This document shows, piece by piece, positions 2,165-5,677 of a stretch of DNA of 7,819 bases. The first letter of the stretch is position 1; each line of letters starts with the position of its first letter. Under the pieces are notes generated by a model that made no database searches, was not told the DNA's origin, and was given only the letters and a program-made list of their open reading frames with translations. The stretch is from a virus. Its lineage: Duplodnaviria > Heunggongvirae > Uroviricota > Caudoviricetes. A program made the translations under genes and the position numbers. The stretch lies in IMG/VR virus record IMGVR_UViG_2547132252_000009, one strand, 5' to 3'.

Positions 2165-2916
2165 CACCTGCTGCACAGCGCCCGAATCGGCTTCCGGTGT
2201 CGTGCCTGCTGGCTGACCAGGATTGACGGTCTGAACATCCCCTGCCTGGTTCGTGGTGTTTTTTTGCCATGAACCATAGTGTTTTTGTCCTGTTCCTGTT
2301 CTTTCTCCTGCTCCTGTTCCTGTTCTTGGCTTCGAAGCCCCTTAAAAGCCCCTTCGAAGCCCCTTACCGAATTTCGGCTATTATTCCGCCTCACATCCAG
2401 ATGGAAATCCGTTTTATATCTGTCGTAAAACACTGACAGAAAAGCGTTTTCAGGTAATGATGCATACTCATTCCTGACACCTGCACAACGGTTATCGCCA
2501 GGCTTCAACGTTTCCCCAACCTGCCAGGCTGCCATTTCATGGACCCAGACCATCTCTGCATCATGGTCATAGCTACAAAAACCAGCTTCAACAGCCCTTT
2601 TAAGCCCCTTTGAAGCCCCTTCCAGACCAAGCCCGGTTTCATGAGCAAGGTATAAAACTGGCAGGTAATACAAACCCAGCATATTTGCGTGAGGGGATGT
2701 CATCAGGTAAAAAGCAACAACTTGCGCTTCTGCACCCGCCTTTCTAAGTTCTCTCCCCGTTTCTCCCAGCCAGAATCGCGGAGAAACTTTTGCGTAATCA
2801 CGCATGGCTACCTCATCTGGTGCCGAACCTTCCTCCGGATATAATCTGTGGTTCCCAATCGACAGAACCAGAGGAGGTTCGACATGTATTTTTTGAAAAG
2901 CCTTTATCAGGCTCAT
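2164..2916 (-). CDS. Putative phage replication initiator (O-like replisome organizer), N-terminal domain plus (EQ)n linker; possibly the 5' part of a frameshifted initiator-DnaT fusion
   Basis: 250-aa ORF with internal repeats GLEGASKGLKRA / GFEGAFKGLRS and an EQEQEQEKEQEQ linker. After the A7 run the tail is arginine-rich and junk-like. Alternative start ATG at 2805 with GAGG 5 nt upstream (MRDYAKV...); ATG at 2916 has no clear SD. Confidence 0.6.
   Translation of the reverse strand: MSLIKAFQKIHVEPPLVLSIGNHRLYPEEGSAPDEVAMRDYAKVSPRFWLGETGRELRKAGAEAQVVAFYLMTSPHANMLGLYYLPVLYLAHETGLGLEGASKGLKRAVEAGFCSYDHDAEMVWVHEMAAWQVGETLKPGDNRCAGVRNEYASLPENAFLSVFYDRYKTDFHLDVRRNNSRNSVRGFEGAFKGLRSQEQEQEQEKEQEQDKNTMVHGKKTPRTRQGMFRPSILVSQQARHRKPIRALCSR
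2285..2366. repeat. Imperfect hexamer repeat (TCCTGT)n at 2285-2326 followed by three tandem 11-bp iteron-like units T(C/A)(G/A)AAGCCCCT at 2332-2364
   Basis: Read directly: tcctgt tcctgt tctttc tcctgc tcctgt tcctgt, then tcgaagcccct taaaagcccct tcgaagcccct, at helical-turn spacing. Confidence 0.7.
2593..2623. repeat. Second cluster of three tandem 10-11 bp AGCCCCTT-type repeats
   Basis: agccctttta agcccctttga agccccttcc; same core as the 2332-2364 cluster, about 260 bp away, inside the initiator ORF. Confidence 0.6.
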
Positions 2917-3339
2917 GTATTAAATGTTGCAGCAACAAACCGCTGGTGTAACAGCCCCGAAATGCTCCCGGATTACAGAGCCTGGCTGCGCGCCGAAACA
3001 TACCTTCGTCTCGACATATTGATTAGCGAACTTCAAAAAGAGACTGCATCCATTCATAACCTTCAGGGTATCGACGCTGTTCGCATTCTGGTATCGCGCC
3101 ATAGTGCTCTCTCAATAATTGAAGTGCGTCATCTCTCTTTTTCTGAACTGATTTTCTTGCTTCAACCAGCTCTGGAATCAGCGAATATCCCGCCGGAAGT
3201 GATCCAATACCCACCTCATGTTGACGAGCAGTTACAAGATGTGCCATACAACCAGCGTGCTGGATTGACTCCCTGCTCAGAGGCTGAATGGGATCACTCT
3301 CTGCTGAAGAAATACCAAGATTTGTATAATCCTCAATAA
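2884..3339 (+). CDS. Alternative hypothetical ORF (151 aa) antisense to 3023..3532
   Basis: ATG 2884 preceded by perfect AGGAGG at 2872-2877 with 6-nt spacing. Protein is Leu/Ser/Ile-rich, as antisense ORFs often are; orientation is opposite to the surrounding operon. Confidence 0.25.
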   Translation: MYFLKSLYQAHVLNVAATNRWCNSPEMLPDYRAWLRAETYLRLDILISELQKETASIHNLQGIDAVRILVSRHSALSIIEVRHLSFSELIFLLQPALESANIPPEVIQYPPHVDEQLQDVPYNQRAGLTPCSEAEWDHSLLKKYQDLYNPQ

Positions 3340-3532
3340 GCCCGGCACACGCTTCTGCATCAGCCAGCTTTATTCTGGTTTCCTTGCGCTGTTCTCTGGC
3401 TGACAAACGCCAGAGCAGCGCATTAGCTTTATGTATCAACCACTCTGCCAGCTCCACATCAGATAAACCGCCACGCCAGATGTGCGGACTGTTTTCGTAA
3501 ACGCTCAGTGTCAATTTTTTGTCATTACTCAT
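3023..3532 (-). CDS. Hypothetical protein (169 aa) between the ydaT-like gene and the replication initiator
   Basis: ORF in operon orientation with ydaS/ydaT/initiator; balanced charged/hydrophobic composition. Start taken as ATG 3532 (MSNDKKLTLSV...), weak SD; the track's GTG start at 3583 would overlap ydaT. Competes with the antisense plus-strand ORF 2884..3339. Confidence 0.5.
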   Translation of the reverse strand: MSNDKKLTLSVYENSPHIWRGGLSDVELAEWLIHKANALLWRLSAREQRKETRIKLADAEACAGLIEDYTNLGISSAESDPIQPLSRESIQHAGCMAHLVTARQHEVGIGSLPAGYSLIPELVEARKSVQKKRDDALQLLREHYGAIPECEQRRYPEGYEWMQSLFEVR

Positions 3533-3545
3533 ATTTATTACCCAA

Positions 3546-3971
3546 TTAATGCACAGCCAGAGTGTTTCCTGCCGGGCCACCACGATTCATCTGATCGAAC
3601 AGAACGATCGCTGATGCAACGAAATCATCAATATCTTTCACCAGCCGTTCCTTCGTCTCTACCAACTCCCGAAAATAAGCGGAACTGTGGCTGCGCATTC
3701 GGGCCACCAGCGGAGGCGGCATCGCTTTTTCGATCGCTGGTAACAACGCCTGAATTTTTTTAACCGCATCAGGAGTGTCTTTCTCCACCCAGCGGAAAAT
3801 TTTCTGAGTATTGCGAGCCATGGCTTCCGGATGGCTGTCGTCATACAGTTCCGGGAACGTCATTCCCAGCTCGAAATACGCTTTGGTAATTTTCGCAGCC
3901 GGTACTTTTTCGCCGTCCGGATGCGCCCAGGCATTCATCGCCATGCGGATGTGTTCATGCTTGATTTTCAT
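3546..3971 (-). CDS. ydaT: YdaT-like protein (CII-like regulator / putative toxin family)
   Basis: 141 aa starting MKIKHEHIR..., recalled as the Rac YdaT N-terminus; sits directly downstream of the Cro-like gene with a 17-bp overlap; GGAG 9 nt upstream of the ATG. Confidence 0.75.
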   Translation of the reverse strand: MKIKHEHIRMAMNAWAHPDGEKVPAAKITKAYFELGMTFPELYDDSHPEAMARNTQKIFRWVEKDTPDAVKKIQALLPAIEKAMPPPLVARMRSHSSAYFRELVETKERLVKDIDDFVASAIVLFDQMNRGGPAGNTLAVH

Positions 3972-4227
3972 GAATCAACTCCGGCGCATTTGATGTGTTA
4001 ACCTTACATCCAACAGGTAAACCGTCGGTTGGGTTAGGATAAATATCTGGGCGGATTTCATGCGGGGTAACTTCCCACTTCATTAGTTGGCATAACGGAA
4101 TTACCTGCTTTGGGGGAACGCCAAAGCTAAACCATTGCCAAACAGTCTGTTGAGCGACCCCCATATAACGACCTATTTCAGCCTGAGTGTATTTCTGCCT
4201 AATTTTTTCGCGAGTGCTATCTAGCAT
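3955..4227 (-). CDS. ydaS: Cro-like HTH regulator (YdaS-like)
   Basis: 90 aa; HTH motif AEIGRYMGVAQQTVWQW; ATG 4227 preceded by GGAGG (5-nt spacer); divergent from the repressor gene across the operator region. Confidence 0.8.
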   Translation of the reverse strand: MLDSTREKIRQKYTQAEIGRYMGVAQQTVWQWFSFGVPPKQVIPLCQLMKWEVTPHEIRPDIYPNPTDGLPVGCKVNTSNAPELIHENQA

Positions 4228-4260
4228 TTTGCCCTCCTCTAAAAACTATAAGCAAAGCCT

Positions 4261-4299
4261 ACAATAAAAAACTGTATGCAATCAACAGTTTTTTATTGT
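4261..4299. promoter_or_regulatory. Operator: perfect 15-bp inverted repeat ACAATAAAAAACTGT / ACAGTTTTTTATTGT with 9-bp spacer, in the divergent ydaS / repressor intergenic region
   Basis: 4261-4275 is the exact reverse complement of 4285-4299. A further ACAG/CTGT mini-palindrome lies at 4306-4328. Candidate -10 TATAGT for ydaS (minus strand, 4243-4248) and TAAAAT (4324-4329) for the repressor gene. Confidence 0.7.
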
Positions 4300-4335
4300 G
4301 ATGCTTTTAACAGTATTTACCTGTAAAATTGAATA

Positions 4336-4737
4336 ATGATGAGCGCCCTAGAAGTATCTATGTACAGAATCAGCAAGCTTCTTCAGGAAACTGGATGGAG
4401 CCAGGCTGAGCTTGCCCGTAGAATTGGTGTGACACAACAAACTGTTCAACAATGGGTCAGCGGTAAGGCTACACCTAAAGCCTCAAGTTTGGATAAACTG
4501 GTTGAGGTTTCAGGGCATCCATTGCATTGGTTTTTATTGCCTCCTGAAGAGTGTGAGCAAATTTTCACCCCTGACACGATGAAAATTGGTCCTCGCCAAC
4601 GCGAACTGCTCCAAGCTTTTAGTGCGTTTCCTGAGGAAGACCAAGAAAAAATGCTTCAAGAAATCAAAGACAAGAAAAAATCAATGGAAGAAACCATTGC
4701 TAGGTGGCTGGCGGCACAAAAAAGCCGCCGGGCGTGA
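4336..4737 (+). CDS. paaR2: CI-like XRE-family repressor, PaaR2-like
   Basis: 133 aa; HTH SQAELARRIGVTQQTVQQWVSG; first gene of a three-gene operon with a small antitoxin and a ParE toxin; divergent from the Cro-like gene. Confidence 0.8.
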   Translation: MMSALEVSMYRISKLLQETGWSQAELARRIGVTQQTVQQWVSGKATPKASSLDKLVEVSGHPLHWFLLPPEECEQIFTPDTMKIGPRQRELLQAFSAFPEEDQEKMLQEIKDKKKSMEETIARWLAAQKSRRA

Positions 4738-4764
4738 CCACAGTACAAGAAGAGGAGTTATGCC

Positions 4765-4956
4765 ATGGGTACAGCCCTTTCTCCGATAGTTTCAGAATTC
4801 GAAACTACCGAACAAGAAAACAGTTACAACGAATGGTTGCGCACTAAAGTAACGTCAAGCCTTGCAGACACTCGCCCCGCAATTCCACATGACGAGGTAA
4901 TGGCTGAAATGGAAAATCTTATTGCTCAAATTGCTGTAACTAACAAGAGCGAGTAA
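4765..4956 (+). CDS. paaA2: Small acidic antitoxin, PaaA2-like
   Basis: 63 aa, acidic; GAGGAG 6 nt upstream of ATG 4765; its stop overlaps the toxin start (TAATG). Confidence 0.8.
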   Translation: MGTALSPIVSEFETTEQENSYNEWLRTKVTSSLADTRPAIPHDEVMAEMENLIAQIAVTNKSE

Positions 4957-5243
4957 TGTTACCCATTTTATGGCTACCGTCTGCTCGCGATGATTTGCGC
5001 CAGATCATAACTTACATCGCCAAGGAGAACCCACCGGCAGCACGTAGACTAAAAATACGCATTGAAACATCGGTATTACCTCTATCTGAGCATCCGTACT
5101 TATATCCACCAAGCGAACGGGTTTCTGGATTGAGAGAGATCGTGACCCACCCTAACTACATAATCCTGTACAGAGTAGCTGCTTCAAGCATTGAGATTGT
5201 AAGCGTGACACATTCTCGGCGACAATTTCCCTTCTCTATCTGA
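4956..5243 (+). CDS. parE2: ParE/RelE-superfamily toxin, ParE2-like
   Basis: 95 aa; ParE-like N-terminus MLPILWLPSARDDLRQIITYIAKENPPAARRL; translationally coupled to the upstream antitoxin. Confidence 0.85.
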   Translation: MLPILWLPSARDDLRQIITYIAKENPPAARRLKIRIETSVLPLSEHPYLYPPSERVSGLREIVTHPNYIILYRVAASSIEIVSVTHSRRQFPFSI

Positions 5244-5261
5244 GTTGAACAATTTTCATAC

Positions 5262-5284
5262 TCCCTCTTTCGAGGGATTTTTTT
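5262..5284 (+). terminator. Rho-independent terminator after parE2
   Basis: tccctc-tttc-gaggga hairpin (6-bp stem, 4-nt loop) followed by a T7 run at 5278-5284. Confidence 0.6.
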
Positions 5285-5294
5285 GCCCAAAACA

Positions 5295-5334
5295 ACAATT
5301 AAAAACTGTTGACACAAAAACAGTTTTTTATTGT
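5295..5334. promoter_or_regulatory. Second operator copy (ACAATTAAAAACTGT, 10-bp spacer, ACAGTTTTTTATTGT) with a perfect TTGACA -35 in the spacer, upstream of the ydfA operon
   Basis: Right half-site 5320-5334 is identical to 4285-4299; left half 14/15 identical; TTGACA at 5309-5314. A -10 is not clearly identifiable (TAGATT at 5335-5340 is too far). Confidence 0.55.
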
Positions 5335-5520
5335 AGATTACATACACCAACCACCCACCCCGCCCCACAGAACGCCGGGCAATACTTCGAGTTACCAAGC
5401 AGTGGTCAGGGGGTAAGTAGCCAGCCCGAGGCGTATGAACATGACGGCAGGGTTCAACTTTAATAACTATGCAGCAGGTTTTTGTTCCGCTACCCGGCGT
5501 TAAGGGGAAATGAGGTCAAC

Positions 5521-5676
5521 ATGGATACTATCGATCTTGGCAACAACGAATCTCTGGTGTACGGCGTGTTTCCCAACCAGGACGGTACATTCACCGCGAT
5601 GACGTATACCAAAAGCAAAACGTTTAAAACCGAAAATGGTGCCCGTCGCTGGCTGGAAAGAAACTCAGGTGAGTGA
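5521..5676 (+). CDS. ydfA: YdfA-like small protein (51 aa)
   Basis: ATG 5521 with GAGG 5 nt upstream; sequence MDTIDLGNNESLVYGVFPNQDGTFTAMTYTKSKTFKTENGARRWLERNSGE recalled as Qin YdfA. The track's longer ORF from 5482 is a likely N-terminal over-extension. Confidence 0.75.
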   Translation: MDTIDLGNNESLVYGVFPNQDGTFTAMTYTKSKTFKTENGARRWLERNSGE

Positions 5677-5677
5677 T

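Follow-up and report, generated by a model that had tools for sequence, protein, structure and literature searches.

The three-gene segment at positions 4336-5243 of the window (the whole 7,819-nucleotide stretch of DNA that was analysed) is, with a probability that we put at roughly nine in ten, the paaR1-paaA1-parE1 toxin-antitoxin (TA) operon from the immunity region of CP-933M/Sp4, a cryptic lambdoid prophage of E. coli O157:H7, with PaaR1 as the CI/DicA-type repressor of the prophage. The three open reading frames expected from the original prediction, encoding a helix-turn-helix (HTH) regulator, a 63-aa antitoxin and a 95-aa ParE toxin, lie exactly where it placed them and match curated families far above chance (Table 1). 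Neither the TA system nor its reading as a repressor-controlled operon is new: publication of three-component systems dates from 2010 and that of the CI/Cro/CII-like circuit from 2021-2023, the architecture of the paralogue having appeared in 2021. PaaR-PaaA-ParE systems, including paaR1-paaA1-parE1, were reportedly described by Hallez et al. in 2010. The locus nevertheless provides an example of textbook quality of a TA pair that has come under the transcriptional control of the prophage's own repressor, and is relevant to how defective prophages and their virulence genes stay fixed in E. coli O157:H7. The value of the present analysis lies in a correct annotation and in a specific prediction of operators for the paralogue that has been studied less.

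Table 1. Features of the immunity region, with positions counted from the first letter of the window.
Feature	Coordinates	Strand	Description
ydaT	3546..3971	-	CII-like activator of the immunity region; Pfam YdaT_toxin, E 1.2e-9
ydaS	3955..4227	-	Cro-like regulator; Pfam YdaS_toxin, E 8e-10
Putative YdaT operator	3961..3978	.	OM-type inverted repeat TTGATTTTCATGAATCAA, an exact TTGATTN6AATCAA match, at the ydaS end/ydaT start
PR-like promoter (putative)	4256..4285	-	For ydaS-ydaT, operator-overlapped; -35 TTGATT, 18-nt spacer, -10 TAGGCT
OR	4261..4324	.	Three putative 15-bp ACAR-N7-YTGT sites: 4261-4275, 4285-4299, 4310-4324
PRM-like -10 (putative, by analogy)	4324..4336	+	TAAAAT at 4324-4329, then 6 bases, then the regulator ATG
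paaR1	4336..4737	+	133-aa HTH regulator, DicA/CI-type immunity repressor of the prophage (probable)
Shine-Dalgarno for paaA1	4752..4757	+	GAGGAG, read from the sequence; ATG at 4765 after 7 nt
paaA1	4765..4956	+	63-aa acidic antitoxin of the PaaA family, without DNA-binding domain
parE1	4956..5243	+	95-aa ParE-family toxin
Intrinsic terminator-like hairpin and T-run	5262..5284	+	Operon end; TCCCTCTTTCGAGGGA then TTTTTTT
OL	5295..5334	.	Two putative ACAR-N7-YTGT sites: 5295-5309, 5320-5334
PL-like promoter (putative)	5309..5339	+	For the leftward operon ydfA-ydfB-...-DicF-dicB; -35 TTGACA 5309-5314, -10 TAGATT 5334-5339

Identity of the locus

Over 4230-5330 the window matches E. coli O157:H7 chromosomes at every base (100% identity). 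In the Sakai annotation the locus lies inside 'prophage Sp4, lambda-like' as ECs_1069/1068/1067, the first of these being annotated as 'phage repressor protein', and Sp4 corresponds to CP-933M (PMC2884950). In most of the O157:H7 genomes sampled, paaA-parE occurs at two places, one of which is Sp12/CP-933P, and the homologue of the CP-933P locus has been placed in CP-933M (PMC8630535); the present locus is therefore paaR1-paaA1-parE1 (system 1), a name that is reached by elimination and from second-hand citations. Toxin numbering varies across the literature, where for example 'paaR1-paaA1-parE3' is found (PMC3141249). Sampled RefSeq records label the three products as 'helix-turn-helix domain-containing protein', 'RelB family antitoxin' or 'hypothetical protein', and 'RelE/ParE family toxin'.

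The antitoxin and toxin

The antitoxin matches the Pfam family PaaA2 (PF21217, E 5.6e-19, score 68 bits where the cutoff is 27), NCBIfam NF050103 (E 1.6e-26) and the solved structure of PaaA2 (PDB 3zbe, E 1.4e-20), and is acidic, with a pI of 4.4 and 11 Asp and Glu residues against 4 Lys and Arg. The toxin matches the Pfam family ParE_toxin (PF05016, E 2.9e-17) and the solved structure of ParE2 (PDB 5cw7_B, E 3e-36), and is basic (pI 9.9). The comparison with PaaR2, PaaA2 and ParE2 that had been proposed as a check gave protein identities of 37, 62 and 67% respectively; in PaaA1, residues 1-45 are identical to PaaA2 at 37 of 45 positions, and the tail at 2 of 18. The suggested match to the PaaR2-PaaA2-ParE2 family is thus borne out in gene order, in context and in the two structural matches, but the locus is a paralogue rather than that system (RAE2) itself and the N-terminal domain of its regulator is unrelated. 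A RelE-like mRNA-interferase reading of ParE1 (NCBIfam RelE_StbE, 28.4 bits, barely above the cutoff) was set aside in view of the identity to ParE2, a protein for which SOS induction and nucleoid localisation have been reported (PMC8630535). By analogy with this characterised paralogue, and from the literature, ParE1 would be toxic and PaaA1 would neutralise it.

The antitoxin stop codon TAA (4954-4956) shares a base with the toxin ATG (4956-4958), giving the TAATG overlap from which translational coupling of all three genes had been proposed. The regulator stop (4737) and the antitoxin ATG (4765) are separated by 27 nt, within which the GAGGAG motif is located, so the proposal applies to the antitoxin-toxin junction only.

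The phage Tritos lacks the TA pair and has cI, followed by OL/PL and then the same leader. Comparison with such TA-less relatives (Qin and Tritos) identifies the TA pair as an insertion, at the position that rexAB occupies in lambda. The C-terminal ~47 residues of the regulator accompany PaaA-ParE even at loci whose N-domains differ, and it is conceivable, if rather doubtful, that this C-terminal segment, PaaA and ParE form a unit that has been joined by recombination to four or more unrelated immunity specificities (N-domain, Cro and operators), with the TA pair as a selfish guard. Were this the case, the pair would kill recombinants that swap the immunity region for a TA-less heteroimmune one. 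The repressor tail is possibly also coupled functionally to the TA pair, perhaps because it sets how much antitoxin is present per toxin or because it mediates octamerisation and looping.

TA systems frequently serve in defence, a relative is carried by some 15% of the complete genomes of E. coli, where the loci number ~830, and a type 2 allele occurs in at least one deposited phage genome, that of Evi; a main role in Rex-like abortive infection or superinfection exclusion, triggered by infecting phages, is nevertheless unlikely. The pair does occupy the exact rexA-rexB slot on the repressor transcript (PMC9986795), but the PADLOC defence models match neither PaaA nor ParE, the regulator giving only generic HTH matches, and the only phenotype tested in the paralogue is post-segregational killing with plasmid stabilisation (PMC8630535). 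Phage-challenge data for paaA-parE were not found in the literature. An addiction module remains our preferred reading of the pair.

The regulator and its neighbours

PaaR1 matches the Pfam families HTH_3 (E 2.3e-12) and Phage_CI_repr (E 7.4e-5), with the 434 repressor as its top match in the PDB, and residues 11-130 align with the NCBIfam DicA subfamily (E 8e-14) at a score under the family cutoff. There is no match in PaaR1 to Peptidase_S24, the LexA/S24-type autocleavage domain, and its C-terminus is instead a DicA-like tail of ~50 aa, which makes it a repressor of the DicA type and not of the lambda-CI type. PaaR2 likewise lacks an S24 domain (PMC8630535). The two regulators share 30 of 47 C-terminal residues (64%), whereas their N-terminal DNA-binding domains are unrelated. 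The PDB yielded no homologue for the C-terminal tail of PaaR1, so PaaR2 appears not to have been deposited.

The Cro-like gene ydaS is divergent from paaR1, at a distance of 108 bp. Its product matches PHROG 35 (transcriptional repressor, E 9e-29) and that of ydaT matches PHROG 163 ('CII-like transcriptional activator', E 4e-46). YdaT is 86% identical to its counterpart in CP-933P/Sp12, which acts in a CII-like manner (PMC8630535, PMC9986795), and the 18-mer of the putative YdaT operator has the same sequence and the same relative position in that prophage, where it has been footprinted (PMC9986795). YdaS, in contrast, is only 23% identical to Sp12 YdaS and co-varies with the regulator N-domain across loci. 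Two antisense overlapping ORFs at 2884-3532 are both open in a 12%-diverged homologue, and codon-position bias did not single out either of them as the real one.

Candidate operators, promoters and terminator

The motif ACAR-N7-YTGT occurs five times in the window, always at OR or OL, against an expectation of 0.64, and none of 200 shuffled sequences reached five. The starts of the OR sites are 24 and 25 bp apart. OR and OL share a perfect repeat of 15-17 bp: the OL site at 5320-5334 is identical to the OR site at 4285-4299, and a 17-mer at the PR-like site is 100% complementary to 5320-5336. Both sets of sites are kept in the related loci A8 and Z1323, which have a PaaR1-type N-domain, and across seven loci the motif is found only with N-domains of this type; Sp12, UTME10 and JB2, with other N-domains and other YdaS proteins, have their own repeats common to OR and OL. 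From its position, from the operator repeats on both sides of the operon and from this co-variation of operators and Cro with the N-domain, PaaR1 looks like the CI/DicA-type repressor of the prophage, and the suggestion that the first gene doubles in this role is upheld. PaaR1 presumably binds DNA, by analogy with the characterised paralogue and from the literature; operator binding and repression of lytic promoters are known for PaaR2 only, and in CP-933P an OL/PL analogue after parE2 is repressed by PaaR2 and YdaS (PMC8630535). The regulatory detail of the PaaR1 allele, namely the ACAR-N7-YTGT motif with three sites at OR and two at OL, may be unpublished.

The recurrence of the motif after the toxin gene, overlapping a putative TTGACA promoter that leads into the early-left operon, also makes it highly improbable that the first gene is a dedicated TA regulator, in effect the DNA-binding half of a 'split antitoxin' made as a separate polypeptide, for which the prophage context would be incidental. 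PaaA does lack any DNA-binding domain (PMC8251345), HTH-XRE domains are frequent in antitoxins (weak matches to HipB, MqsA and HigA were seen), and the co-travelling C-terminal residues would suit such a role; however, a change of N-domain goes along with a change of the Cro-like gene and of both operator sets, the TA-less Qin DicA and Tritos CI occupy the equivalent position as the same gene and share its two-domain layout, and PaaR2 primarily represses ydaS-ydaT and PL (PMC8630535).

The putative PR-like and PL-like sites share a common operator-plus-TAG architecture; the latter has a spacer of 19 nt in the window and of 18 nt in A8 and Z1323. A consensus promoter scan of 3900-5700, with spacers of 16-18 nt allowed, recovered none of the three proposed promoters and returned a single antisense site at chance level within parE, so that the assignments rest on analogy and on the common operator architecture. 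No Shine-Dalgarno sequence can be read upstream of the paaR1 ATG, and the TAAAAT-N6-ATG arrangement has the same geometry as GATAAT-N6-ATG of paaR2, where the 5' end of the transcript is the A of the ATG and leaderless translation has been demonstrated (PMC8630535). By analogy the paaR1 start is probably leaderless as well.

The hairpin with T-run after parE is also found in A8, Z1323, UTME10 and JB2, and no terminator-like sites were detected on the + strand within 4336-5243. The sequence is therefore compatible with co-transcription of paaR1-paaA1-parE1, which would be expected from the literature and from the paralogue, the one system for which co-transcription from a promoter upstream of paaR, and its repression by PaaR, are documented (PMC8630535, PMC4803016). 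A structured put/nut-like RNA was considered for a conserved stretch of ~95 nt that follows the PL-like promoter (5350-5440), and was rejected for lack of evidence rather than disproved: the stretch has no match in Rfam, an MFE z-score of 0.48, no pairs with compensatory change in eight sequences and no second copy in the window.

Proposed circuit and maintenance of the module

In the circuit that we propose, PaaR1 would most likely bind the 15-bp ACAR-N7-YTGT sites, three at OR between paaR1 and the divergent ydaS and two at OL/PL downstream of the toxin gene, and would in this way shut off both the rightward (ydaS-ydaT-replication) and the leftward (ydfA...DicF-dicB-exo-int) early operons while controlling its own, probably leaderless, PRM-like transcript. 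The genes paaA1 and parE1 would ride on this transcript, in the rexA-rexB slot, up to the intrinsic terminator before OL. PaaA1, as a truncated ParD-like peptide devoid of a DNA-binding domain, would wrap and neutralise ParE1, a predicted nucleoid-directed toxin with the ParE fold. PaaA1 is expected to be protease-labile, so loss of the immunity region would free ParE1 and the TA pair would act as an addiction module stabilising that region; both the lability and the addiction role are carried over from published work and from the paralogue that has been characterised. When the immunity state of the RAE2 prophage was switched, transcription of the operon changed but ParE2 was activated in neither state (PMC8630535), and the idea that toxin expression is tied to the lysogeny switch consequently stands as a statement about transcription rather than about killing.

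The TA genes are under purifying selection: across divergent alleles paaA1 has dN/dS values of 0.09-0.28, with synonymous sites saturated, and non-synonymous divergence of parE1 is low (pN 0.08-0.25) against synonymous sites that are likewise saturated. The PaaA tail has a charge of -2 in type 1 and +5 in type 2, and the ParE N-terminal hairpin one of +3 and -4 respectively, a swap in keeping with reports that there is no cross-neutralisation by the two O157 systems, both of which, according to a passage of PMC4803016 citing Hallez 2010, are expressed, with each antitoxin counteracting its own toxin only. This selection despite saturated synonymous sites, the coordinated charge swap and the reported expression of both systems leave very little room for the module being a decaying relic, intact by clonal inheritance only and without current function, even if the 437 identical copies come mostly from one clonal lineage, the antitoxin gene of the Z1323 relative is frameshifted, Sp4 is riddled with IS elements (IS629 and ISEc8 in Sakai) and the O-like replication gene of the window is frameshifted. 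The latter two features do mark the prophage as defective, and the lysogeny switch of CP-933M/Sp4 may therefore be a relic circuit only.

Comparison with known systems

The closest counterpart is paaR2-paaA2-parE2 (RAE2) of CP-933P/Sp12, which shows the same three-gene order at the same location in the immunity region of a lambdoid prophage, with ydaS-ydaT running the opposite way and with an OL/PL-like site and dicB/exo/int downstream, and which likewise pairs a PaaA-family antitoxin with a ParE-fold toxin. In that prophage PaaR2 is CI-like, YdaS Cro-like and YdaT CII-like, PL is repressed, expression shows bistability and a plasmid is stabilised by the locus (PMC8630535); ParE2 fails to bind GyrA59 (PMC8630535, PMC8251345, PMC10886550). 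Its regulator has 123 aa rather than 133, and a single base separates the antitoxin stop from the toxin start in place of the TAATG overlap. The operators are of the GTTTAGT type and unrelated to ACAR-N7-YTGT, as are the N-domains and the YdaS proteins, and CP-933P/Sp12 and CP-933M/Sp4 are therefore probably heteroimmune.

The lambda cI-rexA-rexB operon resembles the present one in that the repressor gene shares its transcript with two accessory genes, which are expressed in the lysogen, with three OR operators ~24-25 bp apart, additional operators at OL on the far side of these genes, divergent Cro- and CII-like genes, and a repressor mRNA that is leaderless, as is probable here (PMC8630535). 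In contrast to lambda, the repressor here has no S24 peptidase/RecA-cleavage domain and ends in a short DicA-like helical tail, only two OL sites were identified, a ParE-type TA pair takes the place of RexAB as accessory genes, and YdaT is a POU-type tetramer and not a homologue of CII (PMC9986795).

DicA of the K-12 prophage Qin has the same two-domain layout as PaaR1, with 29% identity that includes the ELLxxFxAxPExxQ motif, and the leftward operon is the same, ydfA/ydfB being 97% and DicF-dicB 84% identical at the DNA level. The Qin immunity region runs dicA, ydfA, ydfB, ydfC, DicF, dicB, a TA pair being absent after dicA, and Qin has other operators and another Cro-like gene (dicC) than those found here. 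Finally, the canonical two-gene parDE systems of RK2, Caulobacter and Vibrio have, as here, a ParE-fold toxin and overlapping or adjacent genes, and the toxin-binding part of PaaA is ParD-like and wraps the toxin (PMC8251345).

Identity and organisation of the operon

Many E. coli O157:H7 chromosomes match 4230-5330 at 100% identity. Of 5426 complete E. coli genomes, 591 contain this region, 437 of them with at least 99% identity. The operon resides in a lambdoid prophage adjoining yccA, annotated in strain Sakai as 'prophage Sp4, lambda-like phage', where the regulator is ECs_1069 ('phage repressor protein') and the other two genes are ECs_1068 and ECs_1067; Sp4 is CP-933M of EDL933 (PMC2884950). 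Sampled O157:H7 genomes mostly contain two paaA-parE places, and a RAE2 homologue has been located in CP-933M (PMC8630535), while the characterised paaR2-paaA2-parE2 (RAE2) system itself is located in Sp12/CP-933P. The system in the window is therefore the RAE2 paralogue, paaR1-paaA1-parE1 of Hallez et al. 2010, going by the passages of PMC4803016 and PMC8630535 that refer to it. More widely, a paaA-parE relative is found in 833/5426 complete E. coli genomes. The sole DNA-level match among 50,697 phage records is the genome of phage Evi (LR597642.1; L006, 2100-2378), which holds a type 2 system: paaR2-paaA2 is 98% identical, and an intact ParE2 ORF, apparently the same as that of Sp12, is absent from the record annotation.

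Over its full length the window matches RefSeq O157:H7 genomes at 99.9% identity, and no complete RefSeq E. coli genome reaches 100% throughout. The differences comprise one substitution, two 1-nt homopolymer deletions and one repeat-length difference, none within the operon; the deletions and the repeat difference are at ~532, ~2259-2265 and 450-485. Through one deletion (T8 to T7) the O-like replication gene is broken into two ORFs, 1715-2176 and 2164-2916, and the DUF1627 gene has a shorter repeat array than in the RefSeq genomes.

All three ORFs were found exactly where the original prediction had placed them. In Pfam the regulator matches the phage CI repressor HTH family as well as HTH_3 (E 2.3e-12); its match to the NCBIfam DicA subfamily (E 8e-14) is under the family cutoff. 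The expected small acidic antitoxin (computed pI 4.4) matches PaaA2 (Pfam, E 5.6e-19), a RelB-family antitoxin equivalog (NCBIfam, E 1.6e-26) and the solved PaaA2 structure 3zbe (E 1.4e-20); by homology, it would be a ParD-like peptide that wraps the toxin and has no domain for DNA binding (PMC8251345). The ParE fold proposed for the basic toxin (pI 9.9) is borne out by matches to ParE_toxin (Pfam, E 2.9e-17) and the solved ParE2 structure 5cw7_B (E 3e-36). Coupling by a TAATG stop/start overlap, claimed for all three genes, is present at the antitoxin-toxin junction only, as the regulator stop (4737) and the antitoxin ATG are separated by 27 nt, among them a Shine-Dalgarno (GAGGAG).

TAAAAT lies six bases 5' of the regulator ATG, where a Shine-Dalgarno is absent. 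The same -10-N6-ATG geometry occurs at paaR2, where mapping put the start of the transcript on the A of the ATG and translation was shown to be leaderless (PMC8630535). No terminator-like sites were found on the + strand inside the operon; comparable hairpins to that after the toxin gene occur at this position in four relatives. A generic promoter scan detected none of the proposed promoters, which are consequently putative. A perfect match to the YdaT operator, TTGATTTTCATGAATCAA, extends across the end of ydaS and the start of ydaT. It is identical to the OM site footprinted in CP-933P (PMC9986795) and implies a PRE-like route, by which YdaT would activate transcription into the operon.

Features of the operon and its surroundings
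Feature	Position	Strand	Remarks
Regulator gene (paaR1)	4336-4737	same as other two	133 aa
Antitoxin gene (paaA1)	4765-4956	same as other two	63 aa
Toxin gene (parE1)	4956-5243	same as other two	95 aa
OR, three ACAR-N7-YTGT sites	starts 4261, 4285, 4310		108-bp regulator-ydaS intergenic region
Putative PR-like promoter	at OR	minus	TTGATT, 18 nt, TAGGCT; before ydaS; mirrors PL-like site
Terminator	5262-5284		GC hairpin and T-run; after toxin gene
OL, two ACAR-N7-YTGT sites	starts 5295, 5320		just 3' of toxin gene
Putative PL-like promoter	5309-5314, 5334-5339		TTGACA, TAGATT; directly after terminator; overlapped by two OL sites
DicF small RNA	6916-6967	+	Rfam RF00039, 76.9 bits (gathering score 48)
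dicB	7153-7341	+	3' of DicF; NCBIfam CellDivInhibDicB E 8e-36
DUF1482/ydfD-like ORF	7338-7529		after dicB

The toxin-antitoxin pair

The TA pair would be carried on the repressor transcript exactly at the position of lambda rexA-rexB, a placement noted earlier for the paralogue (PMC9986795). In the TA-less relatives Qin (a K-12 prophage) and phage Tritos the repressor gene is followed directly by OL/PL and the same downstream sequence, indicating that the pair is an insertion. One conserved block, made up of the ~47-aa regulator C-tail, PaaA and ParE, is joined to N-terminal DNA-binding domains of at least four unrelated kinds. The pair may be a Rex-like defence system, to which its position alone points, although PADLOC gives no matches. 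The prophage itself is defective, which would suit a module that is a relic of decay, but purifying selection on the TA genes argues against this: synonymous sites between alleles are saturated (pS 0.53-0.87), non-synonymous change is low, and dN/dS is 0.09-0.28 for comparisons where dS was computable.

Residues 1-45 of the antitoxin are 82% identical to PaaA2, with only 2 residues in common in the 18-residue tail; the toxin is 81% identical to ParE2 in its core and 49% in the N-terminal helical hairpin. Tail and hairpin charges are swapped jointly between alleles, being -2 and +3 in the window and the E. coli loci UTME10, A8 and JB2, and +5 and -4 in Sp12. This suggests physical contact between tail and hairpin, and the swap fits the two O157 systems, which reportedly do not cross-neutralise (PMC4803016).

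Alongside a PaaR1-type repressor, E. coli Z1323CEC0014 (L009, 2201-2393) has a frameshifted antitoxin gene beside an intact ParE gene. Either the sequence is in error or the cell survives with its toxin uncovered; possibly a second copy covers it, since the record holds two paaA-parE places.

The regulator as probable prophage repressor

That the first gene also serves as the CI-like prophage repressor is supported by its position, operators, N-domain co-variation and TA-less relatives. The regulator gene is divergent from ydaS-ydaT, after which come the replication genes, and downstream of the operon are ydfA, ydfB, DicF, dicB, exonuclease and integrase genes; this is the gene map of lambda, with the regulator at the cI position, and of Qin, with it at that of dicA. 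The window (7.8 kb) contains five copies of the 15-bp motif ACAR-N7-YTGT (0.64 expected; five reached in no shuffle), exclusively in the OR and OL clusters. One OR site is identical to one OL site, and both regions have a perfect 17-mer in common. From sequence, these sites are predicted to be the operators of PaaR1.

Among seven E. coli loci with paaA-parE relatives, A8 and Z1323, which have a PaaR1-type N-domain, keep all five sites at equivalent positions with different flanking bases, whereas in Sp12/BEC1, UTME10 and JB2, with other N-domains, the motif is missing and different repeats are common to OR and OL. The Cro-like YdaS varies along with the regulator N-domain across the seven. A regulator dedicated to the TA genes is contradicted both by this co-variation and by the OL operators. 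Qin DicA, at the same place, is 29% identical to the regulator and has the same ELLxxFxAxPExxQ tail motif and two-domain layout; the Tritos CI is likewise a two-domain regulator at this place. The repressor is DicA-type rather than lambda-CI-type, since it has no S24 autocleavage domain, as is also the case for PaaR2 (PMC8630535).

Neighbouring features

DicF, dicB and the ydfD-like ORF make up a cassette for inhibition of cell division, of the Qin type, in the putative PL operon. Directly 3' of the PL-like promoter, ~95 nt (~5350-5440, +) are almost invariant in 10 loci, including related loci L003 (34640-34737), L002 (4070-4167) and L007 (2498-2595), while operators, promoters and even downstream genes vary. 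This stretch has no match in Rfam and no second copy within the window; its MFE is no better than that of shuffles (z 0.48), and no pair shows compensatory change. One idea is that it is a candidate nut/put-like antitermination leader.

At 5441-5676 (+), an ORF from ATGACGGC continues in frame into the DUF1391/ydfA gene in relatives, giving 78 aa as annotated in Tritos. The related loci L009-L011 maintain this frame through a -1 and a +1 indel that offset each other; C4-to-C3 at ~5499 breaks the extension in O157:H7 Sp4 and leaves a 51-aa form from 5521. Elsewhere, gene calls overlap in antisense: 2884-3339 (+), annotated in RefSeq as 'ECs1072 family phage-associated protein', and 3023-3532 (-), co-directional with the ydaS-ydaT-O operon and matching PHROG 8304 (E 6e-120). 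Neither frame is interrupted in a homologue of 88% identity, and the distribution of the differences over codon positions favours neither call.

Comparison with the paralogous system

Sequence comparison upheld the proposed likeness to PaaR2-PaaA2-ParE2, with identity to Sp12 of 37% for the regulator, 62% for the antitoxin and 67% for the toxin; YdaS is 23% and YdaT 86% identical. The interpretation originally proposed is thus supported, yet already known, because a 2021 study of the paralogue showed a circuit of CI-like PaaR2, Cro-like YdaS and CII-like YdaT (PMC8630535). The same study showed bistability of the locus, repression of a PL analogue, and transcription of the TA genes in either state with ParE2 not activated; because the region stabilises a plasmid, an addiction module guarding the immunity region was proposed as the role of the pair (PMC8630535). 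ParE2 induces SOS, localises to the nucleoid and does not bind GyrA59 (PMC8630535, PMC8251345, PMC10886550). To this knowledge of the paralogue the present analysis adds the predicted PaaR1 operators, the variety of N-domains on one block, the Evi system and the count of relatives in E. coli.
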